Virus record (IMG/VR): IMGVR_UViG_3300030116_006124
Coordinates: 1 to 58,537 of that record
Direction: 5' to 3' (one strand)
Source of the DNA: a virus
Taxonomy: Duplodnaviria; Caudoviricetes
DNA: 58,537 bases
The notes beneath the pieces are model-generated. The model was not told the DNA's origin. It saw only the letters and a program-made list of their open reading frames with translations, and made no database searches. This document shows positions 9,240 to 34,426 of the stretch, one piece after another. Numbering within the stretch: position 1 is the first letter of the stretch; each line of letters begins with the position of its first letter. The position numbers and the translations under genes were made by a program.

Positions 9240-10370
9240 ATGGCAAAATACAGCGATTATACCGAACAGAAGAAAAAATTATTTGCTAGAGAGTTTGCAG
9301 AAAGGTTATATGCTTCTTTATTTCCTGACCCTACAAACAGTATGGTTCCTGCCAACGAAGCTGGTGTAGATTTTTTAATAAATCAATTAAGGGCAATAGG
9401 TTTATCAGAGCTTGTTAATGAAATATCTAATCAAAAAGATCTTTTTCCTCAAGGGCTTAGAGAAACCATAAAAGACAGGTTTGGGGGTAAAGGAGAAACA
9501 GGCAGAGAAAAACTAAGGCTGAATGCTTTAGGGTTCGCATCAGACCAGATGGTTGGTCTGACAGAACAAGAACAGATTGCTATGGCTTCAGGTGTTGATG
9601 TTTCTGAGTCTAACTTTGCTCAATTTGGTAAACTACCTGAAGGAACAACTTTTAAAAGAACTTCTGTTTTAAGTGAAGAAGGAGATATTCCATCTGCATA
9701 CAATACAAAAGTAAAACCAGATAGAATATTAAAAGCAGGGGAAGACATTGAAGGGCCACCAAGAGAAGCTCAGTTTTATAAACCAACTGCAGAACAATTA
9801 GCAGCTAGAAAAGCTGCAGATAAAGCAGAAATTTTAAAAACAGAAAGAGATAAACAAGCAGCTCTTGCAGGAACCGAAGGGCCGTATGGATATAGAGGAG
9901 GTTATGAACAGTTTCTAAGAGATCAGCAGATACTCGCTCCAACGGCTTTAGGTAAAAGAGAGAGGGACGGTAGCTTCCGTCTACGTACCCCTAGTGAAGT
10001 GCAAGCACGAATCCGTCAAGGTCAGTTTAATATACAACAACCTAAAAGAGAAGCATTACAAAGGTTTAGAGACAGGTTTGGTGGATTCCAACAAGAACGA
10101 AAGCAGTTTATGGAAGATACAGGAGAAGATCCTTTAGAGGTAGAAAAAAGAACAACTGCAGGACAACAGCAAATGGCTGCACAAGCAGCAGGAGAGCGTG
10201 AAAGACAGAAGAGAGAAATGTTGGATAAACAGTTTAAAGTTCAAGAACCTCCTGAATTTACTTCTGAGTTTGCCAAAGACGTAGAAGGATTGTCTCCTAC
10301 TGAAAAAGCAGAAGTTATGAGGATGGTAAAAGAAAAAGAAGAAGAAAAAAATAAGATGCTTGGTATATAA
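9240..10370 (+). CDS. Hypothetical, probable internal virion/ejection protein
   Basis: 376 aa, helical, Q/E/A-rich, in a cluster preceding the giant virion protein. Confidence 0.5.
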   Translation: MAKYSDYTEQKKKLFAREFAERLYASLFPDPTNSMVPANEAGVDFLINQLRAIGLSELVNEISNQKDLFPQGLRETIKDRFGGKGETGREKLRLNALGFASDQMVGLTEQEQIAMASGVDVSESNFAQFGKLPEGTTFKRTSVLSEEGDIPSAYNTKVKPDRILKAGEDIEGPPREAQFYKPTAEQLAARKAADKAEILKTERDKQAALAGTEGPYGYRGGYEQFLRDQQILAPTALGKRERDGSFRLRTPSEVQARIRQGQFNIQQPKREALQRFRDRFGGFQQERKQFMEDTGEDPLEVEKRTTAGQQQMAAQAAGERERQKREMLDKQFKVQEPPEFTSEFAKDVEGLSPTEKAEVMRMVKEKEEEKNKMLGI

Positions 10371-17900: not shown

Positions 17901-20624
17901 GAGTTAGCTAAAATACAAAAGGTTCCTGAAAAAGACTCTGATAAAACAAGACTAGTTAGGCATCTGCTTGGCGGGAAGATAGATGGTAAAAAAGTATTAG
18001 GGCTAAGAGCCTTAACTGATGAGCTATCAACAGTTATACGTGGCATTGTAGGGGAGGATAGTGAAATGGGTATTGCTATTGATGACAACTTAGAACTGTA
18101 TCTACACAGAGAGTATAAACTTTTTTCAGATAAAGAATACAGAGATAATATAAGAACAGACTCTAGATATGACACTGTACGGAAAAATGCAGGTGACTTT
18201 CTATATAAACAATATAAGACATTCAATAAAGATTGGCGTAACGAAGTCAAAAAGTTTCCTACGGTTGCTGAATTTAAAGCGAAGCTCGTAAATGATTATC
18301 TCGATTTACATATTAAAAGTGATAGATCGGCTTCTAATTTATTTAATAACCTTAAAGACCATAAAAAAAGTATTGTAAGTTTAAACATCGGAGCTTTGAA
18401 GAGACGTAAAAATCCTCCACAAGAGTTGCGAGAATTGTTAGGTCAAGTTGCCGATGAGACTGGATATAATGAACTACTAGAAACTTTCTCACATCTTGGC
18501 TTAGTTGCTTCTCAAATAAACTTCATTAGTAACCTCAAGAAGTTTGGTATGGATACCAAAAAAACAGGAGGGCAGCCATTTATTATAGAGGCCGAACTAG
18601 ACGAAGTGCAGGTTGAGGGAAAGGAAGCGACATACAAACCTGCACCTGAAGGTTATAGTATTTTAAAAGTAGCTGCTGGAGCAGATACTAGTATTATTAA
18701 TACAGCACCATTTGCAGACGGGAAAACTTATTATGTTCTTACAGAAATGGAACAAGCTGTTTCTGCTATACTTGACCCTGCAGCGAAAGTAAATCAGTCT
18801 GAAGCCGACAAAGCAAACCAGTTTGTTTCAGAAGTGGGGGCTAAGTTAACAGGTCTGTCTTTAGGAGCTAAGACATTAGGATCTATTGGATTCTATGTTC
18901 GAAACATACTCTCAAACATTGTTTTCTTTGGGCCATCTCAAGGGTTCTGGAGGTTTGGTAAGATGGGTCAATCATTACGGAAAGAGTTTATTCGTAAGAA
19001 ATACTTATCAATGGAGCCAGAAGAAGTGAGTGCATTTCATAGAACCATGATCGGATTAGGGGTTATCGGCAATGAAATAGAAGCGGGACTCTTACAGGAC
19101 TTTTTAACAAACCCTCGAAGCGAAGCACAGCTTCAGAAAGAACTGTTGGATAATCTTGATGGTCTTGAAAGTGAAACAAGTGGAGATAAGAAGGCATTAG
19201 ATATTAGTGTCATATCAGAGAAAGTAGGTAAATCGAGAGCAGGTAGGTTTGCTCGTAGGTTGAGAGAGCTATCACAAACTGTAGATAGTTTTTATAAGAT
19301 CGCTTACTTCATGAATGAGTTAGAGGTTTTACAACAAGCGAGAGCTAAACACGGTACTTCAACAGCAGAGAACCAGATTAATTATGGAGCCTTGAGCGAT
19401 GAAGAACTTATGCAGATGGCTGCTGATAAAGTAAAGAAAACTGCACAAAGTTATGATCAAGCCCCACCATTTGTTCAGAAGCTAAGAGACTCATGGTTCG
19501 GGGTAATGTTTGCTCCGTTCATCCGATTCAAACTGGAGGTTCCAAGGATCATGTTAAACACAGTCATTTTAGCGAGGAAAGAAATGGCAGATACTAATCC
19601 AGTTATTAGAAAACGAGGTAAGGATAGAATGATTGGATTCACTAGCGTGTTAGTAGGATTCTCTGCAATAACTCCAGTCATTGTGAACGCTCTCGCTGGT
19701 ATAGGAGATGAAGAGGAAGAAGCTCTTAGAGATTCGATGCCTGAGTATTTAAGAAGTAATTCATTCTTCTTCTTCAATACAGGAGGTAAATTATACTCAG
19801 CAGATTTAACTTATCTTAATCCGTACGCCATGATGGTCGATCCATTCCTACGTTCCTTTGATGAGTTAATGAGAGGTAGTCCATCAGAAGCGGGAGCCGC
19901 TTTCTTTAAAGCGATGATTGCTGATCAGTATCTCGACCAACAAATACTGGCAGGGGCTGTAACCAGTGCATTAAATAATAGAGATCCAGAGAATGGTAGA
20001 CCTATTACAGAGGTTAACGACACTGCGTGGGAAGCCTTCTCTAAAAAGTTCCAGTTTATTTTTTCAGAGGCTTATGCCCCAAGAACCCTTGAGAAAGTAT
20101 ACAGAGATGGTTTCGTTAAATTGATGGAGGGAGATCCAGATGTGTCTGATTTCATCATGACTCCTTTAGGGGCATTAGCTAAAGAGTTCTTACCCCTTAG
20201 ACCATATGAAATAGTTCCAGAGCAGCAGCTTGATCGATTCCTGTCAGAAAGAGCAGGTGAATATCGTAGAGCAGCAGCACTTAAAAACCGCATGTATACA
20301 GATGACTCGATATCAGAAGATGCTGTAAAAGGTATGGCTGATACGGAGATTGAAAGACGTAGGCGTATTAATGAACATTTAATAAAAGCATTTAGAGGAT
20401 TCAAGAAGTTAGGTCTTACCGACGAACAGATATATGCTCAAGCCTTAGAGCGTGGGTATGGTAAACGTCGAGTCGCCTTACTCTTAAATGGTTTGATGGA
20501 GCGTCCCGTTCTACAAACTCCATTTATTCGTAACATGGCAGTCAAAGGGGATACTCATATTCAAAGGTTGCGTACCTTCAATGATCAACTCGAAACTTAC
20601 GGACGTTACATTCCTGTAGAGTAG
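11979..20624 (+). CDS. Giant polyvalent internal virion protein (HExxH zincin-like, ART-PolyVal-like and C-terminal LPD-like regions)
   Basis: 2881 aa; AAHEVIHH; LHGT...F...GTGFYFT...ARAYA...VLSAYLKVDNP typical of ART-PolyVal; Gly-rich hydrophobic segments; three R[YFQ]TQAG linkers. Confidence 0.7.
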   Translation: MSDLYPTLSLGEKTPVPNDLDVNFNVAPLQSFSQWSSSSGSNINDPLLSAQGYADYQRGHFFRTGELDDEVESSITQGLVGSLLNNQLVTPEQVESEDFLDTLNPQADAQTQANLVRMAYGERAGSTYLSNIQSESGNQEELDKQLNSAKTLLVDSGVLPFARVKDDKGVDKIIGGAGITDRGKSLDDAVRLGALNYSDAYRVMSGLKKGMSDASVFENIREAQLLTELNAVLGSDEDAEIPQNALDVMRGLIKSKDEDATLDQEQDILAVVGDIRKGLSSAYARKNGFGEGAALERYSDKEIRDAVELLAANEVNEKGEFKFYDEDDSKNIRVLGSGHVMAHPNLMQQRERFEKAIKNDDRLSEDQITSLRNQRKLYRQLTYEQYDKFLADTAATSDNWIAAKQAGRASGASDVDILDTFLADKRNYSSIKNRLGDIAATIPDAVVGLFASLGAVVFRSEGATKYLVDNQMDRQRRREVAAIFGDEFGWGMDLSNVVAPMVVDVSATALLSAGTLGAGGVLYAGTKAGAKQTAKALVKNLTKAATGRQFGDTAKDIALKAAARKEGKDSAKTVTDKGVQEAIKAYNKAIANKTFRKAAPFPPLFLTAANRSAGNTYATVYAAQPDSLTHEEKHDAALGYALMGGTVTGLITSAFMGVGLGGFEQAFLRGMTYKGMSAGMSKILNLDIRGLTSTKVKEAIKVSVEKQLKEAAKKSRFIKELGVPAASEAAEEGLDEFIQTFIMDAALNENTPMIDRLMVGLHAASLGGVMGGGVVGVQRMFDKGTGVRYERFQQQTIDKIISDLEGSSPLTQQFLRDNREQITRQLRTASRSRDPITTTVSDSDVDMITDRYNEYLSGRITQKEFEESTNSTLKEAEIFVDGVEVSQAKELLSQEITEKLKQQRITKEDSDFIIQEGQQRETQVGELSQETEEKLERQLEEGRQRAIEQEEQLVKTFDTVWGTREKSIELGEGLSADEHYQRYLDARADAEQVADFWGMESRVDYNESNKGLGAYRAEQTEEGMRLVINPWGLARLTMGLNKANAQHVARFEAAHEVIHHAAWRNLAKAEIDVIFSALSENEVNDIIDTYYNTDEKRQAARSQLSPDSLKVQRRNMQHIIVDEYLRMKAQRITKGYTTEEEINFYKSNPNFVRVLLRYLRSYVNRFNALRELNADNPVISAAMHRLTGEMTRLKGGYQINTAVKFDIDDPENSVNKLITYLDDKPFIDRDPNRKIDMGVRQTQAGSLDEKYLKLAANPEANQQELQKMVDDAAKKAGYNIGPLLHGTPSEFNAFSYNKIGFGTGFQYGTGFYFTTSPTQARAYARDNGKVLSAYLKVDNPRAFNSAPLSSEELIPVIERAAELELQDNLREDSQAVIDDTFISNFGGIEAAAEMLANEDTIAEQLGAMKGSGVAPEYYHKALKQITGIDALTGVDKEPSSVEFTIKEGKSGRKSVKNVEVEGTNVTVVLTPEQIKLSDPVTKDDRGNIIPISERFYRTSQDIRYTQAGSLEGFYENIEEVPPITSQVNEKEVDSLVNVKTASDLNDPAEQEIFEKAVDNINKDRSGILAVAANRLFSKDESKKINQATYNEIRNRVFPYKNVDQVPKAPNAEDIKNVWPKKKDGTPSSKVIAGGSTKFGAISYNDAFKELQNQKVSVRLDIPTFNKSIREKDAPVYAVTIMGPNMQGALAYTGYAKIKLDGIESKVGHAAKIATGTNKFVMASTEGELMEFKPKDLNAFRKDWASGKVGPKKTGEDRWVEVAVNPLRSSEFVDVTNPLDPVPVINGSTAIHVGNRVFVQQPVWGKRPDYGVEGDVRFTQAGGLESGTFETTEGGLGYGGYAPLFDLPFFETGKYRKKKDGLFGSLVNKFRGELDPRVKRLIEQRRQIQDAVETDVVNFKNQLDKIIKEDFDGKAPVALIQALVGSRENISPETEQAYLDLIKGVKSESKIAEIRAEYVEGRRKEFRDRKNKAISELAKIQKVPEKDSDKTRLVRHLLGGKIDGKKVLGLRALTDELSTVIRGIVGEDSEMGIAIDDNLELYLHREYKLFSDKEYRDNIRTDSRYDTVRKNAGDFLYKQYKTFNKDWRNEVKKFPTVAEFKAKLVNDYLDLHIKSDRSASNLFNNLKDHKKSIVSLNIGALKRRKNPPQELRELLGQVADETGYNELLETFSHLGLVASQINFISNLKKFGMDTKKTGGQPFIIEAELDEVQVEGKEATYKPAPEGYSILKVAAGADTSIINTAPFADGKTYYVLTEMEQAVSAILDPAAKVNQSEADKANQFVSEVGAKLTGLSLGAKTLGSIGFYVRNILSNIVFFGPSQGFWRFGKMGQSLRKEFIRKKYLSMEPEEVSAFHRTMIGLGVIGNEIEAGLLQDFLTNPRSEAQLQKELLDNLDGLESETSGDKKALDISVISEKVGKSRAGRFARRLRELSQTVDSFYKIAYFMNELEVLQQARAKHGTSTAENQINYGALSDEELMQMAADKVKKTAQSYDQAPPFVQKLRDSWFGVMFAPFIRFKLEVPRIMLNTVILARKEMADTNPVIRKRGKDRMIGFTSVLVGFSAITPVIVNALAGIGDEEEEALRDSMPEYLRSNSFFFFNTGGKLYSADLTYLNPYAMMVDPFLRSFDELMRGSPSEAGAAFFKAMIADQYLDQQILAGAVTSALNNRDPENGRPITEVNDTAWEAFSKKFQFIFSEAYAPRTLEKVYRDGFVKLMEGDPDVSDFIMTPLGALAKEFLPLRPYEIVPEQQLDRFLSERAGEYRRAAALKNRMYTDDSISEDAVKGMADTEIERRRRINEHLIKAFRGFKKLGLTDEQIYAQALERGYGKRRVALLLNGLMERPVLQTPFIRNMAVKGDTHIQRLRTFNDQLETYGRYIPVE

Positions 20625-20778: not shown

Positions 20779-21018
20779 TTAAAAAATAGCCTTCACCTGA
20801 AACATATATCGATTCATTAAAGAATCATATGTTGATTCAGCATCTGCACGACTCGTTCCCCAATATAATGTCGTTGGGCTTTGCTTATCACGCTCACCAT
20901 ACACATGGTAGTTTGGAATCGGCTCATCAGATTGTGTCATTAGTATCCTCTCAAAAGGAGGTCGGTCAGGCTTACAATATTTTTTAATAAACATCTTACT
21001 CTTCCTGTGTGTTTTCAA
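20779..21018 (-). CDS. Hypothetical protein
   Basis: ORF at the end of the leftward operon. Confidence 0.5.
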   Translation of the reverse strand: MKTHRKSKMFIKKYCKPDRPPFERILMTQSDEPIPNYHVYGERDKQSPTTLYWGTSRADAESTYDSLMNRYMFQVKAIF

Positions 21019-21301
21019 CTTTAGCTTTTATTTTATCAATAGCACTGCTCACTTCTTCATGCTGAAGCAAAGACTTCACTTTACGTTCTGCAGATGAGAC
21101 AGTACTAAAATGTCTACCAAACATTGCACCGATTGTCTTCAATGGGATGCCATACTCTTTAGCTATGTACATTCCTAAGTGTCTCCAATCAGCGATTGTC
21201 CCTCCCGATACGTCGGATGATAGGTCTTCAGAGGTAAATCCCGATAACTCTGTAATGGCGTTGAGTACTGTTTGTGGTTCTACTTTTTTTACTAATTTCA
21301 T
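20996..21301 (-). CDS. Stand-alone DnaA domain IV (Bac_DnaA_C)-like HTH protein
   Basis: RHLGMYIAKE...LKTIGAMFGRHFSTVSSAERKV resembles the DnaA C-terminal signature RQIAMYL...IG..FGGRDHTTV. Confidence 0.7.
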   Translation of the reverse strand: MKLVKKVEPQTVLNAITELSGFTSEDLSSDVSGGTIADWRHLGMYIAKEYGIPLKTIGAMFGRHFSTVSSAERKVKSLLQHEEVSSAIDKIKAKVENTQEE

Positions 21302-24405: not shown

Positions 24406-25950
24406 TTATGCAGCGATACCTGCGTTGCTTGGTGGTGCGTCGATTGCCTCACCGATTGTGTAGTGTTTAGATTGTAATCCGTATGATACCCACAGCACTG
24501 GATAAGGCTGCTCTTGTAAGTTCCTTAGATCATTACTATAACCATCAGTTAAGTAGACTAGCCCGTCACAGAATGGTTCGTTCTCATTGACCCACTGGAA
24601 TGCGGGATGGAATCTTGTACCACCACCGACTTTGATTTTAGTTGGAGCTTGATCACCTGAGTACAACTCATACACGTCTCGCACCTCAGAGGATACGGAT
24701 AAGATGACCATCTTCTCAGGTCTCATATTATCAAGGAACTCTTGTGCAAGGATCAATAGATCAGATGTTAGTTGTTCATCCATCGACCAACTACTGTCGA
24801 TGACATAGACGATTGTGCCGCAACCATCACGACCACGACCTGCAGTGCATAGCCCATTGGTTGCGTTGAAGATCGGTGCATTGAATGGTCGAGTCCATCC
24901 GTCAGCAACACGAGCGGTGTTCCATTCCATGACATACTTTTTCCAGTCCATGTATGATCGTTGCGTCTTCTGATTCTTGACACTCCTCATAGTGTCACTC
25001 AAACCCAAGTCACTTGATGTCGATGCAAACTCAGCTTGCTTGATCACCTGATCTGAGATCTGATCAATCTCCTCAAGCACCTCCTCAAGTGTCTCACCCT
25101 CCTCAAGGTGTGGCTCGTCAGGTAAATCATCAGCACCCTGCCCGACCCAATCATCTCCTAAGATTTCTTTGTCGGTTGGTTTAGGTGTGCCTCCTGTAGC
25201 ATCGCCCTCTTGATCTCCGTCATCATCGCCATCGTCAGTACTATCGCCATCACTATCTGATTCACTTGTATCTTGATTAGTGTCAGCATCCTCATCGCAT
25301 GGCTCGTCACCACCATCGGATGACTGTGGATTATCATCACCATCCTGCTCACCATCCTGTTGATCATCGTCCTCTGCTCCCTGCTCATCGTCCATCTTGG
25401 ATTGTCCATTGTTCTCGTCTTTAGCAAGCTCGATGAGAATATTCTCCGTACTCATGTTATCGAATCGGATATCACAACATGACCCTTCGATCATCGGTAA
25501 CAGCTTCGCATTCTGTTTGAGTATGAGTAGATTATCTGCATGGTCAGCAGCAATATTGATTAGACGCTTACGCTTCATGAACTCATTCAGCACATGAGCG
25601 GGGGCATCATCATCTGGTATAGTACCCATCAACTTGAAGAGTCTGGATATACCCAACATCACATGACCTGATTCGTGAGCTAGTAGGAATGCAAGGTATC
25701 CAACTGGATCACTGGTCTGTTCTATCTTATCTAATACACCATACGGATTGAGCCGTAGGTATCTACCATCCGTCTGTCCATATGGTGTCTGATATGTCCA
25801 TACCCATTTGAGTAGTGTCAAGGCACTGTAGTAAGGGTACAGCTCTTTGGTTGTCTCTAGCCTACGGAATGCTTTGGCTAGTGTGCTATCTCCGTAGTGA
25901 TCAAACACAATCGGATCACCTTCTTGTATGTCTTCTATATTTGGTATCAT
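24406..25950 (-). CDS. DUF2201-like metallopeptidase fused to vWA domain
   Basis: TDG, AHESGH (HExxH), NIAAD, acidic linker, MIDAS IDSSWSM, GGGT.F, LTDGY, PVLW. Confidence 0.85.
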   Translation of the reverse strand: MIPNIEDIQEGDPIVFDHYGDSTLAKAFRRLETTKELYPYYSALTLLKWVWTYQTPYGQTDGRYLRLNPYGVLDKIEQTSDPVGYLAFLLAHESGHVMLGISRLFKLMGTIPDDDAPAHVLNEFMKRKRLINIAADHADNLLILKQNAKLLPMIEGSCCDIRFDNMSTENILIELAKDENNGQSKMDDEQGAEDDDQQDGEQDGDDNPQSSDGGDEPCDEDADTNQDTSESDSDGDSTDDGDDDGDQEGDATGGTPKPTDKEILGDDWVGQGADDLPDEPHLEEGETLEEVLEEIDQISDQVIKQAEFASTSSDLGLSDTMRSVKNQKTQRSYMDWKKYVMEWNTARVADGWTRPFNAPIFNATNGLCTAGRGRDGCGTIVYVIDSSWSMDEQLTSDLLILAQEFLDNMRPEKMVILSVSSEVRDVYELYSGDQAPTKIKVGGGTRFHPAFQWVNENEPFCDGLVYLTDGYSNDLRNLQEQPYPVLWVSYGLQSKHYTIGEAIDAPPSNAGIAA

Positions 25951-25994
25951 AGTATTCTATTTTTTAGTTAATGGTTTAATTTAACAAGAGCTTG

Positions 25995-27170
25995 TTAAAG
26001 TCCTTTCAGTTCTGCGTTCTTAGGATGCTCTTTCAATGGGATGCCCACGTTGATCGCTGCATGATATCCTGCTCTCGCAATCTCCTTGGTAGCGGGTAGT
26101 AGGAATCTATCAACGAACCAATCTACATCACCTGCAGACACAGCCGTTCCTCTGTCCCTGCCTCGACTCTCAAGGTCAGTTAGCTCATAGTCCATGATCC
26201 GTAGTGCAGCGTGGATCATCTTGAACTGATCAGTAGGTTTGTCTGACAAGTCCATGTCGCCTTTACGTACAGCATCAAGGTCATCGAGCAGACCTGTTGA
26301 GCTGTTGATGTATGCGATACAATCACGAGCTGTAGTGTCACCGACCTTAGATTGCAGTGTCAGCTTGAGATGCTTGTTGAACTCAGACTTACTAAGCTCA
26401 AGGTTGTTCTCAATATAGCTGATCTGTTTAGCAGCACTCGCCCATGATCTCGGAGTTGGGTGTGGTGATCCATCCCAAGGCTGTGGGATAGATGGAGCGA
26501 AGCGGTTACCATTCTCCAACTTAGCGTTGAACTGTAGATACTCAACGACTGGTGAGAACTTACTCCACGCAAACTCAGATGCCCAACTCAACCATGAGTT
26601 GATATCTGCTTTTAATATAAACTGATTACCACGATTCACTATCGGGGCATCCAGTACTGCAGAGCGTGATCCATCCTCACGTCGGTTACCTGTCACGAGT
26701 ATCTTGACATTCTCGCCAAGCCTATGCGAGCCGATCTTAGACTCACCATCTGGATCGATAGTACTACGTACCAACGATCTTGTATCGGCTGCCCACTCTG
26801 GCATCTCATCGAAGACTAGCAAGCAAGGAGTATCTTCCATGCCAAGTCTCTCAAGAAGTGCTGCCGTCGGTATACCCTCTGGCTCTGAGAATGACATGAG
26901 ATCCTCACCATTCGCACCCTTCTTCAAGACCCCATAACCTGTGATCTCAAGAGGTGATGCACCAGTGTAGTTACACTTGTACACCTTTACAGTTTCATCG
27001 GTAACTCCGTAGAGTTTAGCGATAGCCTTAGTTACTGAGGCATTGGCAAGAGCTGTCTTGCCTGTACCTCCTGATCCCAAGAGAATCATTACTGAGTCTC
27101 CTGATGAGTATACGATCTCAGCTTGTGTTTGTACGTCGCTGAATTTGATTTCTGGTGTTTCGGTATTCAT
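25995..27170 (-). CDS. MoxR-like AAA+ ATPase
   Basis: GSGGTGKT, LVFDE, TGNRRED, NR, PTPRSW. Confidence 0.85.
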   Translation of the reverse strand: MNTETPEIKFSDVQTQAEIVYSSGDSVMILLGSGGTGKTALANASVTKAIAKLYGVTDETVKVYKCNYTGASPLEITGYGVLKKGANGEDLMSFSEPEGIPTAALLERLGMEDTPCLLVFDEMPEWAADTRSLVRSTIDPDGESKIGSHRLGENVKILVTGNRREDGSRSAVLDAPIVNRGNQFILKADINSWLSWASEFAWSKFSPVVEYLQFNAKLENGNRFAPSIPQPWDGSPHPTPRSWASAAKQISYIENNLELSKSEFNKHLKLTLQSKVGDTTARDCIAYINSSTGLLDDLDAVRKGDMDLSDKPTDQFKMIHAALRIMDYELTDLESRGRDRGTAVSAGDVDWFVDRFLLPATKEIARAGYHAAINVGIPLKEHPKNAELKGL

Positions 27171-27225
27171 TGTATTTTATTTAGTTTTTTAGTTAATGGT
27201 TTAGTTAACAACTGAGTTGTTAAGA

Positions 27226-28173
27226 TTAGAGTCCACAGACAGCAAGCCTACTAGCTGTGCGTTCTGCTTGGTTGTACACATCCTCGATTGCAGTAGCAGC
27301 GAGCTTTCTTGTCGCTGATCCTGTCTTACCTAAGTGATCACGTTGGATGCTGCCAACCTCTTGAAGATCCCTGACAATATCATTGATGACATCGAACTCG
27401 AACCAGTTCAATTCCTTCAACTCTGCAGCAGCTTCTTTCAGCTCATCGAATGTCTTCTGATGGAGACGCTCACCCTTAGTCACTTTCTTAATAGCTTCTT
27501 TAAGTTTCTTCATAGCAGGTTCCAATACTTTGGAATGGTTCCTTGCCATGACATCGATGCGTGTCTTCTCAGATTGAGCAATCACTTTGTTAGCTACCTC
27601 CTCAGTCATACCTTCGAAGATAGTACCCTTCTTGATTGCCATCGGTGCAGCCGACCATGATACAGCGATCTTGAATTCTCCTAAGAACTCCTCGCCATTG
27701 TGAGGTACGTTGACTTCATGGATATTATCGCCCAAGCCTTCGATTGATTCAGCACGTATGGTATCCCACTCTCTCAAAGCATCCACTCGTAGATCATCGA
27801 GTTGTCTTGACATATCATCAATCATTGCTTGTATCTCAGCAACCTTGTCAGTGGATACAATACGTACCCCACGCACATCGCTTGGATGTGTGCCTATCTT
27901 ATAGTTCATCTGAGCCTGTTGCACGACACTAAGCATCTTGCCAAGAGAGTTGTTACGAGTCTCAAGAACTGTAGCTGAAGCTCTCACTCTCCCCTTCTTT
28001 GCATTGGTATCCTTAACCACTTCTTTAGTCTTCCCTTTAAGGGTGGCACTAAAGCCTGTCGGTTTACTACCTGCCCAAGTAACTTGGACAGTATTATTTA
28101 ACACTGTAAGGATCTCACTTTTAGCAAGACCTGCTTTGATTTCTTTATCGTTGTATTGGTTTATTGTATTCAT
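27226..28173 (-). CDS. DUF3150-like protein of the AAA/vWA triad
   Basis: 315 aa, helical, directly upstream of AAA and vWA genes; assignment largely by synteny. Confidence 0.5.
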   Translation of the reverse strand: MNTINQYNDKEIKAGLAKSEILTVLNNTVQVTWAGSKPTGFSATLKGKTKEVVKDTNAKKGRVRASATVLETRNNSLGKMLSVVQQAQMNYKIGTHPSDVRGVRIVSTDKVAEIQAMIDDMSRQLDDLRVDALREWDTIRAESIEGLGDNIHEVNVPHNGEEFLGEFKIAVSWSAAPMAIKKGTIFEGMTEEVANKVIAQSEKTRIDVMARNHSKVLEPAMKKLKEAIKKVTKGERLHQKTFDELKEAAAELKELNWFEFDVINDIVRDLQEVGSIQRDHLGKTGSATRKLAATAIEDVYNQAERTASRLAVCGL

Positions 28174-28202
28174 TATTTAGTTTATTTAGTTTGTTATTAT
28201 AC

Positions 28203-28230
28203 ATTATAATAGATTATTATAATAATGCAA
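28203..28230 (-). promoter_or_regulatory. Strong sigma70-like promoter for the DUF3150-like/AAA/vWA operon
   Basis: Minus strand TTGCAT-N16-TATAAT, 23 bp from a palindrome copy. Confidence 0.6.
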
Positions 28231-28249
28231 GAATTATTTTTTATGTTAA

Positions 28250-28774
28250 TCAGTTAACAACTGAGTTGTTAAAGAACTCTGCTGTTGCTTGGTGTACTAA
28301 GTCCTCCATGATTTCCCCATCACCCTCCACTTCTGCATCAGTTATCTCGACGTTATCGAGATTAAAATCATCATCAAAGTCAGAGGGGCTATAACCTTCC
28401 ACGATTTCTTTAGCTTCCTCCTCTGACTCAGCTTCAACCAATACGGATTCTTCAACCACTACAGAGACCCTGTAATACTTCTTGATTGGTTCGAACTGAT
28501 GTACAGTATATTCACTGTCCCCTACCCTCACCACTCTCCAAAGGAATGATGACCAGTAAGGTGATCTTGGCGATTCGTAGGAATCAAATACATGAAACCC
28601 ATTTGATGGTGGCACGAATCCCCCTACCATTTCTACGAAAGAACGAGGAATTTTTTCAAGCTCCTCCTCTGGTACTGTATTACTCCAAGAGCCTCCACAC
28701 TTTTCGAATTTGTATTCTGCTATTAATTTAAATGTATCTTCATTGAAGATGTCTGATGTTACTTCTACTTTCAT
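28250..28774 (-). CDS. Early-region cassette gene, acidic hypothetical
   Basis: 174 aa ending FFNNSVVN, encoded by the palindrome. Confidence 0.65.
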   Translation of the reverse strand: MKVEVTSDIFNEDTFKLIAEYKFEKCGGSWSNTVPEEELEKIPRSFVEMVGGFVPPSNGFHVFDSYESPRSPYWSSFLWRVVRVGDSEYTVHQFEPIKKYYRVSVVVEESVLVEAESEEEAKEIVEGYSPSDFDDDFNLDNVEITDAEVEGDGEIMEDLVHQATAEFFNNSVVN

Positions 28775-28824
28775 TTTTTATTTTATTAGTTTGTTATTTT
28801 ATATTCAGCTTAACAACTCAGTTG

Positions 28825-29070
28825 TTAAACTCTGATCTTCTTTACTCCTGTTATTTCGTTCTCGTGTGATGAGTCTGGATGACTGGCGATCAGACTGTAG
28901 AAACAACTCGTTGCTTCTTTGTATGAATCACAGCTCCATCCGTCCACGTAGACAGCTTCAACTGTCTCGCCCTTCTCATCTATAGTATCGAGTCTCCAAT
29001 CCACATCGAAGACTCCGTATCCATCACCCTGTCTGAGGGTAATCCAATGGTGTAGTTTATTTTTTGGCAT
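28825..29070 (-). CDS. Early-region cassette gene, hypothetical
   Basis: 81 aa; TAA stop lies inside palindrome 28810-28828. Confidence 0.65.
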   Translation of the reverse strand: MPKNKLHHWITLRQGDGYGVFDVDWRLDTIDEKGETVEAVYVDGWSCDSYKEATSCFYSLIASHPDSSHENEITGVKKIRV

Positions 29071-29107
29071 AGGTATTATTTGTTTTGTTTGTTTTTAATT
29101 TAACAAC

Positions 29108-29317
29108 TCAGTTGTTAAGTTCTTTTAGGCTCATTAGCCACTTGTTTCCTACAGCGAGATCATTCAAAAGAGTTAGAGTTTTCTCTAAGTCCTCTCTTTC
29201 TTCATTTACTCCTGTGTGATCCGCTCCATCTAGCTCATCTACTCTCCACTTGATCACCTCATAGGCATAATCTAAGTAATCAAGGCGAACTTCTTTTACT
29301 ATTTCTTGTATCTTCAT
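29108..29317 (-). CDS. Early-region cassette gene, hypothetical
   Basis: 69 aa; ends LNN-TGA inside palindrome 29100-29118. Confidence 0.65.
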   Translation of the reverse strand: MKIQEIVKEVRLDYLDYAYEVIKWRVDELDGADHTGVNEEREDLEKTLTLLNDLAVGNKWLMSLKELNN

Positions 29318-29341
29318 TTATCTATTTTGTTTATTTGCAAG

Positions 29342-29662
29342 TTACTTAACAACTGAGTTGTTAAAATACTCCTCGATATCTATTGCTATGTATCCCTCAT
29401 CCTTTGCGTTGGATGGGTTTACCAATGGCTCATGATCCCATGAGACCACGATCTCTTTTGAGTGAACGCTGTTATTCCTCTCATGTAAATAAGCTGTCAA
29501 GAATGCGATCGCATCCGCATACCGCTGTGACTCTGTGGAGATGAGGTATTGCTCACCGCCCTTGAACTTCCAATGAGCTTGCCCATCAGAAAACTTTCCA
29601 CTACCAGAGTGTGCTCCGTAGTTCTCCATATATTGTGTTGTTATGACGTAGTAGTATTTCAT
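29342..29662 (-). CDS. Early-region cassette gene, hypothetical
   Basis: 106 aa, TQYMENYGAH...WKFKGG motif; ends FNNSVVK through the palindrome. Confidence 0.7.
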   Translation of the reverse strand: MKYYYVITTQYMENYGAHSGSGKFSDGQAHWKFKGGEQYLISTESQRYADAIAFLTAYLHERNNSVHSKEIVVSWDHEPLVNPSNAKDEGYIAIDIEEYFNNSVVK

Positions 29663-29864
29663 TTATCTATTTTGTTTATAAGTTAATTAAGGTTGCATGC
29701 ACCATGCACCATTTAACAACTCAGTTGTTAACCCTGCCTTCCCCTCTACCGCAGTGATCCACTCCGCATTGCGAAATGACTGCGAGTCTTACAGCAAGAT
29801 TAACAACTCAGTTGTTAATGGTACATGGCACATGGTTCACCTAACAATTCAACCAGTGTTGAAA

Positions 29865-30227
29865 TTAGTTTGCGTATTCACCAGTCCATACAGGTGCTTT
29901 TATCATATAGCCCCGATCATATGTCAGATGTATCGGTGACGAGTGATAGGGTAATTCTAGATCGATGCATCGCTTCTCGAAATTAGCAACGGCATCATCC
30001 AGATTAGTAAACTCCATTTGGTTTACGCTGTGCAAGAACTTCTGATAGAAGTGATCTATGAATTCAATCTCTACTGTATACTTTGATGTGCCGTTTTCTC
30101 TTAGCACTACTCTGCTCATTGTACAGTTGTGATCATTCTCTCCGTACTTTATCTTTTCAATTAATGATCTAGCTAGAACTGGATACTCGATCCAGTCGAT
30201 TGCTTTCTCTACTGTTCTTATTCTCAT
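29865..30227 (-). CDS. Early-region cassette gene, hypothetical
   Basis: 120 aa with AAGAAAGGAATACC leader. Confidence 0.65.
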   Translation of the reverse strand: MRIRTVEKAIDWIEYPVLARSLIEKIKYGENDHNCTMSRVVLRENGTSKYTVEIEFIDHFYQKFLHSVNQMEFTNLDDAVANFEKRCIDLELPYHSSPIHLTYDRGYMIKAPVWTGEYAN

Positions 30228-30277
30228 GGTGGTATTCCTTTCTTGGTTTGTATGTTAATAAGTTAACAACTCAGTTG

Positions 30278-30445
30278 TTAAAACATCCGATTCCTTGGTA
30301 AGAAATTAGTATCGGATACTGCTCGAAGTTTATATGCTAATTCCTTTTCATCCAATTCACATAAGATCTCGATAGCCTGAAATAGTTTAGCTATCTTTTC
30401 AATACGTGCCTTGCGTTCTTCTTTTGTTTCTTTTTTCTTTCTCAT
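30278..30445 (-). CDS. Early-region cassette gene (55 aa, not in ORF track)
   Basis: MRKKKETKEERKARIEK...RNRMF*, stop inside palindrome 30263-30281. Confidence 0.55.
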   Translation of the reverse strand: MRKKKETKEERKARIEKIAKLFQAIEILCELDEKELAYKLRAVSDTNFLPRNRMF

Positions 30446-30478
30446 GATTTGTATGTTAATAAGTTAACAACTCAGTTG

Positions 30479-30676
30479 TTAATCTGTTTCTGTTAATCCT
30501 CCTATCACCTCAAGGTTCGCTAAGTGAGATTCAATAATCCCATACCTGTCAGCGTTTGGGCGTACCTCATCCCAATACTCGCACTTGCATATGCTATCGT
30601 AGTAGTACCCACAATTCTCATTATGCTTCAACCCCATCGGGCGATGATGTTTTAATTTATCAGTTGTTAAGTTCAC
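30479..30676 (-). CDS. Early-region cassette gene, Cys/His-containing hypothetical
   Basis: 65 aa, GTG start after the shared leader; stop inside palindrome. Confidence 0.55.
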   Translation of the reverse strand: MNLTTDKLKHHRPMGLKHNENCGYYYDSICKCEYWDEVRPNADRYGIIESHLANLEVIGGLTETD

Positions 30677-30723
30677 TGGTATTCCTTTCTTGTTTGTATG
30701 TTAATAAGTTAACAACTCAGTTG

Positions 30724-31017
30724 TTAATCTGCTCCGTTCTCATTGTTAATTGAGAAGACTGTTCTGAGATCCTCGTTAATACGAAGACACCAGTTTTCTT
30801 GGTGAGCTACATCAGCCCCCGAAAACTCTACTCTTAGCGATTCTTTTGAGAGGGTTGCTAAACCATAATTGAAATCTATGCCGTTTACCCTACCATCCCC
30901 ATCCAGATGGATGTCGGTAATTTCTTCCCGTGATATTGCCCACGAATTAAATGCCATCCCATTCGAATTTAGTTTTTCAAATAGGGTTATTACTTTTTGC
31001 ATTGTTTCTATTGTCAT
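30724..31017 (-). CDS. Early-region cassette gene, hypothetical
   Basis: 97 aa; stop inside palindrome 30709-30727. Confidence 0.65.
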   Translation of the reverse strand: MTIETMQKVITLFEKLNSNGMAFNSWAISREEITDIHLDGDGRVNGIDFNYGLATLSKESLRVEFSGADVAHQENWCLRINEDLRTVFSINNENGAD

Positions 31018-31096
31018 TTGTTTACTTGGTTTGTTTGTTATTAATTTAACAACTCAGTTGTTAACAACTCAGTTGTTAAGGATTAAAATTTTAGAC

Positions 31097-31276
31097 CTAT
31101 GCCTCCACCCCCGTCCATCTGATAATCTGATCAAACGATTCATACCCTAAACCTGCATATAGAATGCTTTCCAATGTCTCGAAAGTATATCCGTTTATAC
31201 TCGTAACAATTTGTAATGTCTCTTCACTTATCCCTAATTCTCTTAGAGTATCCCATGCTTTTTTCTTATCTCTCAT
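31097..31276 (-). CDS. Early-region cassette gene (59 aa, not in ORF track)
   Basis: MRDKKKAWDTLRELGISEETLQIVTSINGY...ILYAGLGYESFDQI..., between two tandem palindromes. Confidence 0.6.
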   Translation of the reverse strand: MRDKKKAWDTLRELGISEETLQIVTSINGYTFETLESILYAGLGYESFDQIIRWTGVEA

Positions 31277-31453
31277 ATTACTATTTTATGTTTATTATTT
31301 TTGTATGTTATTAATTTAACAACTCAGTTGTTAACAACTCAGTTGTTAAGGTAATCAATTAAGAATTGAAGGATGCACCATTGCCAAGGGTTAGTCGACA
31401 ATGGTGCAATGTTCAATACTCACTTGATAAGTGATAAGTTAACAACTTAGTTG

Positions 31454-31993
31454 TTAACTCTTATCTAATTCTGAAACAATCTCATTTATAAGATTAACAG
31501 CTTTGGCTTGTTCCTCAGTAGATGCCGCCTTGAATAACTTAGCAATCTGCTCAGCAGTGACAGGCTTCTTTTCCTTATCTGATTTTTTCTTGTTAACAAG
31601 AACCGCTTTAGTTGTAGCTTCAGCTATTTTAATATATCCAACAGATACTTTGTTTAGAGTCTTAGTGATTCCTGCATCACTTCTGGTTTTTCTAAGATAG
31701 TGCCCTCTCTCATTTAGAATTTTAGATAGATTCTGTTGAGTAGTTTTTCCGTTCTTTACCAGTGGAGCGCAAGTATTCTGTACTGTTTTATAGATTACAG
31801 AACTAGGAATATTAGCTTTTTCCATTATCTCAATTTTCTCAACTAAGATTTCCTTAAGGGTTTCCGTTGCTTTGAAGATTGCTTCAATAAATGAATCTCT
31901 TGCAGTTGTTAATTCAGTTGTAACATTTTCAAGAACTGCTTTCTGATCTGCAGTTAATTCGATAGCGTTTTTCTTATTTGCTTTTTTAGCCAT
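31454..31993 (-). CDS. First early gene; Lys-rich putative DNA-binding protein
   Basis: 179 aa, QQNLSKIL..RG...RKTRSDAG basic motif; stop inside palindrome 31439-31457. Confidence 0.6.
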   Translation of the reverse strand: MAKKANKKNAIELTADQKAVLENVTTELTTARDSFIEAIFKATETLKEILVEKIEIMEKANIPSSVIYKTVQNTCAPLVKNGKTTQQNLSKILNERGHYLRKTRSDAGITKTLNKVSVGYIKIAEATTKAVLVNKKKSDKEKKPVTAEQIAKLFKAASTEEQAKAVNLINEIVSELDKS

Positions 31994-32089
31994 TTTATTT
32001 TCTTTCTATTTTTTAATGTTTTATTGTTAGGTTTATCCATTGTTTTTCAATGGTTAGAATCTTAACAACTGAATTGTTAAAACTCTAAA

Positions 32090-32128
32090 CATTGCACTAT
32101 TGGAGGTATTCTTTCCAATAGTGCAATG
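32090..32128 (-). promoter_or_regulatory. 15-bp perfect stem-loop (processing site or terminator)
   Basis: CATTGCACTATTGGA / TCCAATAGTGCAATG with a 9-nt loop. Confidence 0.6.
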
Positions 32129-32134
32129 GATAAT

Positions 32135-32725
32135 GCCAAGCCGATAACCTCATAATTTATCGACTGTGATACCTTAGTATATTTCAATCCGTTGAGACCA
32201 GTTGAAATTTTAAATTGCTTGGATAGCCATAATTTAAAACCAGTATAAAATAATCATATAAACTAAAGAGCTTTGAAATGTGATTAAGGTATACCCGAAA
32301 AAATCGGTCTGATCTGCGTGAATACTTAGGGGTGAAAAGGTTGCCAAACCATATTCACTTTTTTTGACCCCTGCTAAATGTTCGATCCTACTAAAGGCAC
32401 TTCTCAGGGTCTGCTATTTTAAACTGGTTACAGCGTGCAATTTTTTAACGGCTAGATATTACTCCTAAATCATTTTGTATTGACTACCATTCTTTAAGCT
32501 ATGCCTCAGAGTAAACGGATTGGACGTTTATCCTTTACGGTTTTTAAACTGCTCTCCACAGATCCCGCTCTGTAATTTTCTTAAAACTGTCAATAAGGCT
32601 TTTACTGCTAAAATACTTTATCGCTACCAGTCGAGCTTAGTTGGTTACCCCTAAGCGGGCTATACTGTCAAAAATCTATCCTCTCACTGTCACTGAGCTG
32701 AGGTAATTTTTCCCTCACTTTCTTA
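32135..32725 (-). ncRNA. Candidate large structured ncRNA
   Basis: No ORF of 60 aa or more; several long-range complementary pairs (see findings); weak promoter TTGCAC at 32750-32755 upstream and a 15-bp hairpin downstream. Confidence 0.55.
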
Positions 32726-33062
32726 ACCAATACTTTAAAAAAAGAAATAGTGCAACCTAATATTTCATTATTTTTCATAAATGATCATAACAATTTAGTT
32801 GTTAGTTGTAAGTTGTTAATGGTTAATGAGTTATGTAACATTAATAATTGTTCATAAATAGCCATAATGATCTGAATTTTGCACTAGCAAAACAACAAAA
32901 AATCCTAACAACTTTCCAAGAATTTTTGAAAAGTGTTATATCGTCGTAAATGAAATAGGGTATATTACCCCCATATCAGCTTGCAACGTCATATAAGGCA
33001 ATTATGAAGCATTATGAGGATATTTTAGTGAGTATAGATAATTATGGTAATTATAAAGGGAA

Positions 33063-33078
33063 TGTTCTACGTGGAACA
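33063..33078. promoter_or_regulatory. parS-like site
   Basis: TGTTCTACGTGGAACA, one mismatch from the palindromic parS TGTTCCACGTGGAACA. Confidence 0.6.
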
Positions 33079-33328
33079 TTTTAACAACTGAGTTGTTAAG
33101 GGGTAATTGATAATAGGCAATGGCTAATTGTTCAGTTGATCAGATCATTGCTAATGTCAAATTTTCAACAAAGTCTAGCAATTCACAGCCGATCATTATC
33201 AGTAAATATGGAAAGTTAATCATTGTTGATTATCAATAGATCACAGCCAATCGACAGCCACGCCACCCCCCGCCCCCGACTTTTTTTTGTGTGCCGCCCC
33301 ATGTATATATGTGTGTACAAGAAAAAAT

Positions 33329-33357
33329 TTGACTAAACATCTACCACTCGATATAAA
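33329..33357 (+). promoter_or_regulatory. Sigma70-like promoter (leaderless transcript for 33364)
   Basis: TTGACT-N17-TATAAA, 6 nt before the ATG. Confidence 0.55.
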
Positions 33358-33363
33358 GGGGGT

Positions 33364-33591
33364 ATGCCAAACGTAAAAAAGCAAGAATATTACAGGAAAA
33401 ATAGAGAAAAGCGGCTCAAGTATCAGCGAGATTACTACGAGCTAAATAAAGAGCGAATCAAGAAAAATCGAGCCGATAGAATGGACAAGGAGCCCGATAG
33501 AATGGACAAGGAGCGGTCTTACAACAAAGAATACTACAAGAAGAATAAGGAGCGGATCATGGCTCGTCGTAAGGCTAAAGAGCGGAAATGA
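33364..33591 (+). CDS. Small basic protein with YY.KN.E repeats
   Basis: EYYRKNREK / DYYELNKER / EYYKKNKER; internal 21-bp tandem duplication 33473-33514. Confidence 0.6.
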   Translation: MPNVKKQEYYRKNREKRLKYQRDYYELNKERIKKNRADRMDKEPDRMDKERSYNKEYYKKNKERIMARRKAKERK

Positions 33592-33716
33592 AAGTCGCTC
33601 ACGATTCACCGTTCATTATCCATGATTCGGGGTTCAGTGTGCGGCTACGTGAGCGGGGTTACACATCATCAAAGTATATAATAATGAATGCTAAATATAC
33701 GTGTAGAATCAAGTTG

Positions 33717-33887
33717 AAAACTTTTTTAAAAAGCTGTATGTAGTTTCATGCAATTAGAATTATTGTTATGAAAAATTATGAAAAAAAGATACAGTTTCAT
33801 GCAATTTTTATTTTATACTATAAAAATAGGTATTTGAAGAAGAATGAAAAAATGCATGAAACTGCATACAGAATATAAAAAAGTTTT
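33717..33887. repeat. AT-rich region with long imperfect inverted repeat plus a direct copy (candidate replication origin)
   Basis: 33717-33752 is complementary to 33853-33887; AGTTTCATGCAATT at 33742 and 33793. Confidence 0.5.
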
Positions 33888-33940
33888 TATATTAGGTATT
33901 TTTAATTAATCATTATAAAGTCAATTTTTTTCTCATCAAT

Positions 33941-34426
33941 ATGGATACACAAACCAAGTACAAAATAACAGACATTAAACTAAAACGTAAAAGAATTCCA
34001 CAAGCCTTGAAGTACGAAATCGATGAATGTGGTTTCATATATCGTGGTTCTAAAAAACTCGCTATGAATTTCCGTTCAGGAAAGTGGTACACTCAAATCA
34101 GAGGGAACGATGGTAAAAACTACACCGTAGATTCTGAGAAGCTCACCCGACATGTATTCGGGGACAAGGAACTAGAGTTCAGTCGAGAGGATGTTTTAAC
34201 TAAACTGCAAGCCCGACCGATAGAAGAGTTCCCTCGTTACGCTGTTACGAGCTATGGGGCTGTCTACTGCATTGATCCTCCTAAGAGAGGCCCACGATCA
34301 GGTCAACGGTATCTACTTAGCGAGAAGTTACATAACGGCAAAAGGTACGTAACGGTGTATCATGCGGATGGCCGACGGAGAACCCGACAAGTAGAGCACC
34401 TAGTCCGTGACACATGGGGATATTAA
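33941..34426 (+). CDS. NUMOD4-like DNA-binding protein without HNH domain
   Basis: PIEEFPRYAVTSYGAV...GKRYVTV...RQVEHLV; N-terminal half looks like a degenerate second copy. Confidence 0.5.
   Translation: MDTQTKYKITDIKLKRKRIPQALKYEIDECGFIYRGSKKLAMNFRSGKWYTQIRGNDGKNYTVDSEKLTRHVFGDKELEFSREDVLTKLQARPIEEFPRYAVTSYGAVYCIDPPKRGPRSGQRYLLSEKLHNGKRYVTVYHADGRRRTRQVEHLVRDTWGY

Follow-up and report, generated by a model that had tools for sequence, protein, structure and literature searches.

The genome of an uncultured marine phage of the Caudoviricetes (IMG/VR record IMGVR_UViG_3300030116_006124) contains a leftward operon in which a short palindrome occupies almost every gene boundary. The record was analysed over its full length of 58,537 bases, here called the window, and is complete (CheckV 100% complete). 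The operon is non-structural and probably early. Comparison with related phages gave good support for the conclusion that the palindromes are the exact points at which cassettes of a single gene are acquired or lost, give way to others or change their order. A role of the palindrome in marking gene boundaries and in recombination is highly likely. Recognition of the palindrome as a DNA site by a protein is a putative assignment that falls somewhat short of an even call.

The window was scanned with the pattern TTAACAACTNAGTTGTTAA, allowing up to two mismatches and using 100 shuffles as a control. The scan gave 17 matches, 16 of them exact and one with a single mismatch (32062-32080), all located in 27205-33099. 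Only 0.01 copies were expected by chance, and none of the shuffles reached 17. No copy was found beyond the array in the whole record, and a reversed-pattern control gave zero. A looser pattern, TTAACAA-N4-5-TTGTTAA, picked up an 18th site at 25981-25998, an 18-bp variant with the sequence TTAACAAGAGCTTGTTAA, which accounts for the start coordinate of 25981 given in an earlier note on this DNA. All 18 sites are confined to 25981-33099, a block in which every gene is on the minus strand. Two pairs of copies (31046/31061 and 31316/31331) overlap in tandem with TTAA in common. The earlier note had described 17 near-perfect copies with none elsewhere and a centre base varying among C, G and T; both statements are borne out by the scan, the centre on the plus strand being C in 11 copies, G in five and T in one. 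Its assignment of one small leftward open reading frame (ORF) to each coding interval likewise agrees with the ORF list, in which the sizes given (315, 174, 81, 69, 106, 120, 55, 65, 97, 59 and 179 aa) are all found on the minus strand. The three intervals that it had called structured and non-coding contain no minus-strand ORF of at least 40 aa. Two of them, 31350-31438 and 29732-29799, fold better than shuffles on the transcribed strand, and the third, 32081-33080, has a fold z-score of -3.14.

The relation of the palindrome to ORF ends was surveyed at 98 sites in six genomes, 66 of which had an upstream ORF end nearby. The stop codon was the TAA at palindrome positions 2-4 in 31 of the 66 and the central TGA in five; a further 10 stops lay 0-2 nt before the palindrome and three just past it. 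The next start codon was most commonly 28-36 nt downstream, and a few shared leaders recur behind many copies, for example cttATTAACATACAAAccaagaaaggaatacc-ATG with an AAAGGA Shine-Dalgarno sequence. The sites have perfect arms of 8-9 bp around one to three central bases. Among 99 copies the arms were essentially invariant, and the centre base on the transcribed strand was G in 76, C in 19, A in three and T in one. No further Watson-Crick pair was present outside the 19 nt in 85 of these copies. As RNA, the palindrome alone has a folding energy of -4.7 kcal/mol, and no U-tract follows it. An intrinsic terminator is improbable in this lineage because the stem is weak and the U-tract is missing. 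Across the region neither terminator-like sites (six found, 5.7 expected) nor promoter-like sites (39 found, 31.9 expected) were enriched. A TAnnnT hexamer 16-19 nt past the TTAACA of the left arm was found in 13 of the 62 unique contexts (background 5.7%), the best hexamers being weak (TAACAT).

A scan of a viral contig collection with the exact pattern returned 12 loci on nine contigs. All of these contigs except L006 align to the window, and six carry long arrays. In a phage collection, neither the array (blastn) nor a 740-aa protein (tblastn) gave a match, and no cultured relative was found. Six arrays, one of them combining L008 and L015, two loci on the same contig, were cut at the palindromes and the segments clustered, giving 27 cassette families. 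Just three families are present in all six arrays: C (179 aa), D (89 nt, non-coding) and E (81 aa). The remaining families are present, absent or replaced from array to array, and the order of families P and I in the window is the opposite of that in L012. Apart from the few leader types, unrelated cassettes share the palindrome only.

Breakpoints were located from homology blocks of at least 150 nt, counting only ends inside the array (n = 46). The median distance of these ends from a palindrome was 1 nt, compared with a median of about 104 nt in simulation (minimum 37 in 10,000 trials), and 29 of the 46 were within 20 nt, compared with 15% for random positions. Upstream homology ends inside the palindrome. 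Downstream ends are often 25-55 nt further on, in the shared leader, which fits ordinary short-homology recombination as described for the PeSLs of T4-type phages and the repeats of Cluster O mycobacteriophages (compared below). Some cassettes are bounded on both sides by the 19 bp alone, as is Q when L009 is compared with the window, and the centre flips between G and C at orthologous sites. In X7 and X11, independent marine and estuarine runs from 2025, position 29712 is joined to 29800 with 19 letters in common and the non-coding cassette J left out; X11 also has a 504-nt replacement directly behind 29118. A joint in X1 that goes back 285 (depth 2.19, 10 extra letters) was too weak to count and was set aside, and weak joints from 25999 in X7 (side 21-22) were not counted as evidence. 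The earlier note had named colinear gene content between repeats as the outcome that would speak against shuffling. Gene order in the related contigs is not colinear, the differences comprising whole cassettes with breakpoints at palindromes, and the shuffling reading therefore stands.

The spacing of the palindrome also varies. In the relative represented by L016 and L018, 16 boundaries have the 18-bp form TTAACAAG-CT-CTTGTTAA and three have the 19-bp form. Thus the 19-bp and 18-bp forms coexist in one genome, at a ratio of 17:1 in the window and 3:16 in L018, and they substitute for each other at orthologous boundaries. The 18-bp form differs by a compensatory change of the eighth pair on both sides (C:G to G:C) and by a spacing one base shorter. 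A comparable one-base difference separates the palindromes of the more distant locus L031 from those of L025 and its relatives. The head of the array in L016 (9289-9660) has tandem repeats resembling iterons, such as TTGTTAGGCTTTTAGAA, in which the half-site of the palindrome is included.

Distant loci were retrieved via an alignment of ATPase homologues. Eight further viral loci (L025-L032) have conserved synteny and an ATPase identity of 34-38%. In six of the eight (L025, L029, L030, L032, L028 and L031) a repeated palindrome again flanks the ATPase gene on both sides, but its sequence is another one: four GC-rich genomes have TAGTGCGG-N-CCGCACTA, L028 has GTTTGGAT-N3-ATCCAAAC and L031 has CTTAGTGCG-TC-CGCACTAAG. 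A trio consisting of the 315-aa protein, the AAA ATPase and a DUF2201 VWA protein (24406-28173) occurs in every relative. In the distant loci the ATPase and 315-aa homologues stand in the reverse of the order found in the window, showing that conserved genes too were permuted at these boundaries.

The setting of the palindrome differs among the distant loci, and the stability of the hairpin that it can form ranges from very weak in the window lineage to strong in the GC-rich lineage. In the GC-rich genomes some copies are followed by 27 nt of A-rich sequence and then TTGACG-N16-TAAAGT. In L028 the palindrome, with TACAAT or TATAAT at its centre, is followed by a small co-varying hairpin and then by the Shine-Dalgarno sequence and start codon. 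This hairpin (7344-7380, 9954-9992 and similar) has a stem of 5-6 bp and a tetraloop-like loop followed by TTAGAAAGGA and ATG, and it looks like a stabilising mRNA 5' hairpin. In L026 a related core palindrome tops a canonical terminator (a GC stem and TTTTT), after which come an UP-like tract and TTGACT-N17-TAAGCT; the pairing is maintained by four G.U pairs that are possible on the sense strand only. Canonical terminators of this kind occupy the positions in L026 that correspond to the palindromes of the window.

Two of the non-coding cassettes of the window fold best on the sense strand. For cassette D (31350-31438) the z-score is -7.46 on the minus strand, compared with -3.55 on the plus strand. 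It forms a hairpin of about 26 bp (-32.6 kcal/mol) with compensatory changes at three of the 26 pairs, and is a candidate small RNA without a match in Rfam. For cassette J (29732-29799) the corresponding z-scores are -2.47 and -0.37. Together with its two palindromes J makes up the tip of a long hairpin whose arms include G.U pairing that is possible only on the sense strand. These arms enclose a single palindrome in L013, giving a 25-bp hairpin of -35.8 kcal/mol on the sense strand and -24.9 kcal/mol on the antisense strand. Cassette O (32081-33080), for which the z-score above was obtained with 20 shuffles, shows 85% conservation in L013. Half-site-like repeats occur in it three times in tandem at 32795-32819, and the cassette may represent either a replication origin or a long non-coding RNA. 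At gathering thresholds Rfam gave no match anywhere in the window, and 29500-33950 gave chance-level matches only; a search of the window for tRNAs found none.

We tentatively favor the reading that the palindromes are sequence-specific gene-boundary elements, probably bound by a phage factor, that regulate or insulate early transcription and in addition serve as short-homology crossover points. Each would be a cis-acting element; its place is at the 3' end of one ORF, for which it often provides the stop codon, and about 30 nt before the next start. Crossovers would arise in the 19 bp and the shared leader, through ordinary recombination between short homologies or through template switching. 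The phage's putative PD-(D/E)XK exonuclease module may contribute to them, and a dedicated site-specific recombinase would not be needed. The weakest step in this scheme is the sequence-specific reading of the palindrome by a DNA-acting factor, which would probably be encoded by the phage. Acting as an operator- or roadblock-type regulator, such a factor could turn transcription off, or insulate it, wherever two genes meet. In around one-fifth of contexts the site would overlap a weak sigma-70-like promoter with the left arm as its -35 element. An operator array is plausible and is our leading guess for the molecular role. The invariant arms, which contrast with the co-varying hairpin of cassette D and second hairpins of L028, and the range of stability argue for more than a structural hairpin. 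Taken with the scarcity of copies in a genome collection (below), these features fit a site that is read by a lineage-specific factor.

A number of observations weigh against such a factor. Coexisting 19-bp and 18-bp forms are awkward, and would not be expected, for a rigid symmetric dimer, whereas a hairpin would accept both. A purely symmetric duplex site would not predict the sense-strand excess of G (76) over C (19) at the centre, and in L026 a terminator carries the core palindrome at its tip, with G.U pairing restricted to the sense strand. Constant turnover of cassettes regenerates perfect copies, so that invariance is possible without a trans-acting factor. In addition, no binder was identified among the helix-turn-helix (HTH) candidates and the 179-aa protein, with 49 of the about 70 ORFs of the window covered by the Pfam scan. 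A stand-alone 101-aa DnaA C-terminal DNA-binding domain (Pfam E = 4.5e-11) is encoded at the far end of the leftward operon (20996-21301, minus strand), and the palindrome half-site TTAACAACT has six of nine bases in common with the DnaA box. This protein was rejected as a universal binder, being missing in two of five distant records, one of them complete and with palindromes, and half-sites outside palindromes are only slightly enriched. A 209-aa HTH protein shows 47-60% identity across all five and hence does not follow palindrome type. The 179-aa product of the first gene of the array (model pLDDT 79) gave no Foldseek match to the PDB at E<=0.001. Its 'RSDAG' motif may resemble a transposase DNA-binding region, which makes the protein a tentative lead.

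The alternative that survives best, although we consider it unlikely, is that the palindrome acts by folding into a hairpin, either within the transcript or in DNA that is single-stranded. Its role would then be that of an intercistronic attenuator or a processing or stability signal, perhaps bound by a hairpin-specific protein and comparable with the stem-loop half of a PeSL. All copies are transcribed in a single direction, with the 76:19 excess of G over C at the centre of the sense strand. The length of the loop varies, with a compensatory change of the eighth pair, and both forms coexist. The palindrome of L026 caps a terminator ahead of the UP element and promoter and has four sense-only G.U pairs, one site is nested in the 25-bp hairpin with its greater stability on the sense strand, and the two palindrome-flanked cassettes D and J fold best on that strand. 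Nevertheless, in the window lineage the stem is worth only -4.7 kcal/mol and has no U-tract behind it. The 31 of 66 upstream ORFs that stop within the 5' arm are a further difficulty, as terminating ribosomes would open the hairpin. Within a palindrome type the arms show no compensatory variation, in contrast to the true hairpins nearby, and a count of wobble-type mismatches in imperfect copies (G.T versus A.C) gave no consistent sense-strand bias across lineages. The stem sequence of A-form RNA is rarely read specifically.

Rather less probable is a palindrome that is simply a 'linker', without sequence-specific function, identical from boundary to boundary only through recent recombination and with its type defining the partners of exchange. 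The breakpoints within palindromes are as this predicts, as is the predominance of one type in each genome (17:1 in the window, 3:16 in L018). Degenerate copies are found where a boundary no longer separates cassettes, such as the internal copy in the 179-aa gene, translated as VTTELT, and indels between repeats are reported in the papers on PeSLs and Cluster O repeats. On the other hand, the boundaries of the ATPase and 315-aa genes keep lineage-specific palindromes at a protein identity of 34-38%. The retention of palindromes around these conserved genes points to long-term maintenance. The dyad symmetry and the limitation of the element to one operon are also left unexplained by a linker. 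In another, improbable proposal, the palindrome would be the recognition site of an unrecognised palindrome- or hairpin-specific exchange machinery, an 'integron without an integrase', with the conserved first gene or the conserved ATPase/VWA/315-aa trio as candidate components. Palindrome type, whether 19-bp, 18-bp or lineage-specific, would then delimit closed communities of phages able to exchange early-gene cassettes.

It is very improbable that each palindrome is a promoter, either an N4-type hairpin promoter for an unrecognised injected RNA polymerase or a site for a phage specificity factor of the host polymerase, so that each cassette would be its own transcription unit. Promoters for T7-type and N4-type phage polymerases do occur as many near-identical, lineage-specific copies with one before each gene, a pattern resembled by the copies here. 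The palindrome lies 28-36 nt before most starts, in L028 it has a TACAAT or TATAAT centre and is followed by a co-varying hairpin of the kind found at the 5' end of stable mRNAs, and the phage encodes a 2881-aa polyvalent protein (11979-20624, plus strand). However, an RNA polymerase was not detected. The 2881-aa protein contains an ART-PolyVal ADP-ribosyltransferase domain at residues 1284-1475, and it had no PDB sequence match at E<=1, a result with which remote homology is compatible. Its look-alikes in the Atlas were LPD/ART polyvalent-protein clusters only. A search with PF00940, for which the control was uninformative, was silent, and no other ORF in the window is of polymerase size. Moreover, ordinary sigma-70-type promoters stand behind some palindromes, and a -10-like hexamer at promoter spacing is limited to the 13 of 62 contexts described above.

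Least probable among these readings is a dedicated, integron-like exchange of cassettes by an unrecognised recombinase acting on the palindrome. The array does consist of promoter-poor single-gene cassettes in one orientation, with the repeat at ORF 3' ends and some cassettes non-coding. There are also cassettes edged by the 19 bp alone (Q in L009 versus the window), overlapping tandem copies with a common TTAA, and G/C centre flips at orthologous sites. Against this, six-frame searches for tyrosine recombinases (PF00589; control positive in 14 of 14 genomes) and for serine recombinases or resolvases (PF00239) gave no match, as the earlier note had anticipated in stating that no such enzyme was recognisable, nor was any unique site of the attI kind seen. 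As homologous exchange predicts, homology in many cases continues for 25-55 nt into the leaders, and the short, perfect palindromes do not have the imperfect, bulged structure of attC sites. Of the integron-like shuffling array proposed in that note, the shuffling part holds, as seen in the whole-cassette differences and the P/I swap; the dedicated machinery does not, given the negative integrase and resolvase searches and the ends that run into leaders. Finally, a host REP element or host operator was rejected, because just 10 single copies were found across a genome collection, scattered among unrelated taxa.

The palindrome array has close counterparts among described phage elements. PeSLs of T4-type phages are composite motifs of a stop codon, stem-loop, promoter and Shine-Dalgarno sequence that lie in hyperplastic regions and mediate indels between relatives (Arbiol et al. 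2010, PMC2839356; Comeau et al. 2014, PMC4122927). In both cases intergenic motifs are repeated in a hyperplastic region of small ORFan genes, with the order stop codon, stem-loop, promoter-like hexamers, Shine-Dalgarno sequence and start, and the indels or replacements that distinguish relatives map to the motifs. The stem-loop of a PeSL may overlap the -35 element or the spacer. PeSLs consist of a sigma-70 consensus with variable GC-rich stems, in contrast to the one exact 18-19 bp palindrome here. PeSLs are also associated with mini-circles between neighbouring motifs, for which the assembled contigs here gave no counterpart beyond the weak X1 joint. The hairpin of the present array is predicted to be weak and is probably not a terminator, only about one-fifth of contexts have promoter-like spacing, and the phage is unrelated to T4. 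A strong sigma-70 early promoter is lacking, with hexamers in just 13 of 62 contexts, the best of them weak, and no enrichment in the promoter scan.

Cluster O mycobacteriophages have more than 30 copies of a 17-bp dyad, TGTTCGG-N3-CCGAACA, that are enriched between the genes of a leftward operon and absent from hosts; indels occur between repeats, and the authors propose a dimeric regulator and leave the function open (Cresawn et al. 2015, PMC4351075). The two sets of repeats share invariant inverted arms with a variable centre, enrichment in the short gaps of one leftward operon, absence from host genomes and repeat-flanked indels, with 18 copies here against the more than 30 of Cluster O. 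The resemblance is one of kind only, as the sequences and the phages are unrelated. About one-third of the sites in Corndog are inside genes and the sites occur genome-wide, whereas the present array is confined to a single 7-kb block with strictly one site at every gene boundary. It also differs in its spacing variant and in having documented counterparts, each specific to a lineage, among distant relatives.

Stoperators of Cluster A mycobacteriophages are reported to be repressor sites that halt elongation at many positions (PMC9283540). They too are many copies of one site at boundaries within transcribed regions, and blocked elongation is the mechanism favored here. Stoperators are asymmetric, oriented sites bound by the monomeric immunity repressor of a temperate phage. 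The present sites are instead symmetric in their arms, bias being limited to the centre base (G in 76 and C in 19 of the 99 copies), and the phage showed no lysogeny genes. As for a cognate repressor, neither of the HTH candidates in the scanned ORFs, the 101-aa DnaA_C-type protein and the 209-aa protein, tracks the palindromes. Integron attC arrays run in one direction; their cassettes comprise one gene, mostly lack a promoter and terminate in a palindromic attC site, an imperfect hairpin of 57-141 nt. The present array is likewise unidirectional with a palindromic site at each cassette end, but no IntI-type integrase was found, the sites are short and perfect, and crossovers extend into the flanking homology. 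The N4 virion RNA polymerase uses hairpin promoters, and T7 has 17 near-identical promoters. These resemble the palindromes in being short hairpin-forming or highly uniform lineage-specific elements before early genes, and differ in serving a phage RNA polymerase, which was not detected here.

The array belongs with the PeSLs, the Cluster O repeats and the stoperators, and is set apart from them by its strict one-per-boundary layout, the spacing variant and the lineage-specific counterparts. The 'undescribed system' of the earlier note is too strong a description, because close precedents, the PeSLs and the Cluster O repeats, are already in print.

The features of the array are listed in Table 1. 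Pfam and PHROG gave no match for eight of the 11 small array proteins and, for the remaining three, only weak sub-threshold matches or matches to unnamed families.

Table 1. Palindrome sites, cassettes and other features of the array, in coordinates of the window
Feature	Position	Strand	Remarks
Palindrome site 18, 18-bp variant TTAACAAGAGCTTGTTAA	25981..25998	.	ATPase/VWA gene boundary
391-aa AAA-type ATPase (phrog_1297)	25995..27170	-	Palindromes on both sides here and in 6 distant relatives
Palindrome	27205..27223	.	Boundary of 315-aa gene and ATPase gene
315-aa conserved protein, function not assigned	27226..28173	-	Order relative to ATPase swapped in distant relatives
Promoter-like TTGCAT-N16-TATAAT before 315-aa gene	28203..28230	-	Conserved in relatives
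174-aa ORFan cassette, family R	28250..28774	-	Common only to window and L013
Palindrome	28254..28272	.	Within 3' end of 174-aa ORF; TTGCAT-N16-TATAAT promoter-like site 23 nt downstream
Palindrome	28810..28828	.	First TAA is stop codon of 81-aa ORF
81-aa cassette, family E	28825..29070	-	In 6 of 6 arrays compared
Palindrome	29100..29118	.	Central TGA is stop codon of 69-aa ORF
69-aa ORFan cassette, family Z	29108..29317	-	Window only
106-aa cassette, family K	29342..29662	-	ORF list, clustering
Palindrome	29346..29364	.	Pattern scan
Long-hairpin arms 29819-29835 and 29696-29712	29696..29835	-	Two palindromes and J inside; folding
Palindrome	29713..29731	.	Downstream side of 68-nt non-coding cassette J
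68-nt non-coding cassette J	29732..29799	-	Missing in L013, L012 and runs X7 and X11, joint exactly at palindrome
Palindrome	29800..29818	.	Upstream side of cassette J
120-aa cassette, family Q	29865..30227	-	ORF list, clustering
Palindrome	30263..30281	.	Pattern scan
55-aa cassette, family I	30278..30445	-	Order relative to family P swapped in L012
Palindrome	30464..30482	.	Pattern scan
65-aa cassette, family P	30479..30676	-	ORF list, clustering
Palindrome	30709..30727	.	Pattern scan
97-aa ORFan cassette, family Y	30724..31017	-	ORF list, clustering
Overlapping tandem palindromes, 31046-31064 and 31061-31079	31046..31079	.	TTAA in common; pattern scan
59-aa cassette, family H	31097..31276	-	ORF list, clustering
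Overlapping tandem palindromes, 31316-31334 and 31331-31349	31316..31349	.	Pattern scan
89-nt non-coding cassette D, conserved long hairpin	31350..31438	-	In 6 of 6 arrays; compensatory changes
Palindrome, centre T on plus strand	31439..31457	.	Pattern scan
179-aa protein, family C, first protein-coding gene of array	31454..31993	-	Conserved in distant relatives
Palindrome, one mismatch	32062..32080	.	Pattern scan
1-kb non-coding cassette O	32081..33080	-	Promoter-like site 33050-33022 at start, 15-bp hairpin 32090-32129 at end
Palindrome, most upstream (first) of array	33081..33099	.	Pattern scan

Several further features were observed around the array. In the divergent intergenic region at 33742-33863, TGCATGAAACT occurs three times, twice on the minus strand and once on the plus strand. 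Each copy is at a -35 position, as in TTGCAT-N18-CATAAT at 33804-33775, and the copies are probably divergent promoters or operators that start both operons. Between an HNH gene and the head of the array is a plus-strand ORF (33364-33591) for a very basic protein of 75 aa with repeated YYxxN(K/R)E motifs and no family match. A homologue with 44-61% identity over about 45 aa is found in the same place in six of the eight distant loci; the remaining two, L029 and L032, stop short of it. The VWA protein matches its homologues in two blocks, between which there are tandem repeats in L031 (12683-12958) and L027 (7375-7553).

It is an old question whether phage mosaicism at gene boundaries arises via illegitimate recombination followed by selection or via conserved 'linker' sequences. 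Among natural examples, the lineage described here makes an unusually clear case for the linker route, with one exact palindrome per boundary, 27 cassette families, homology ends at a median of 1 nt from a palindrome, permuted conserved genes and parallels in distant relatives. It poses the questions of what reads an 18-19 bp dyad despite a one-base change in spacing and of whether palindrome type limits gene exchange. The ORFan cassettes and the two or three small structured RNAs carried between the palindromes are natural candidates for functions in host takeover or anti-defence.

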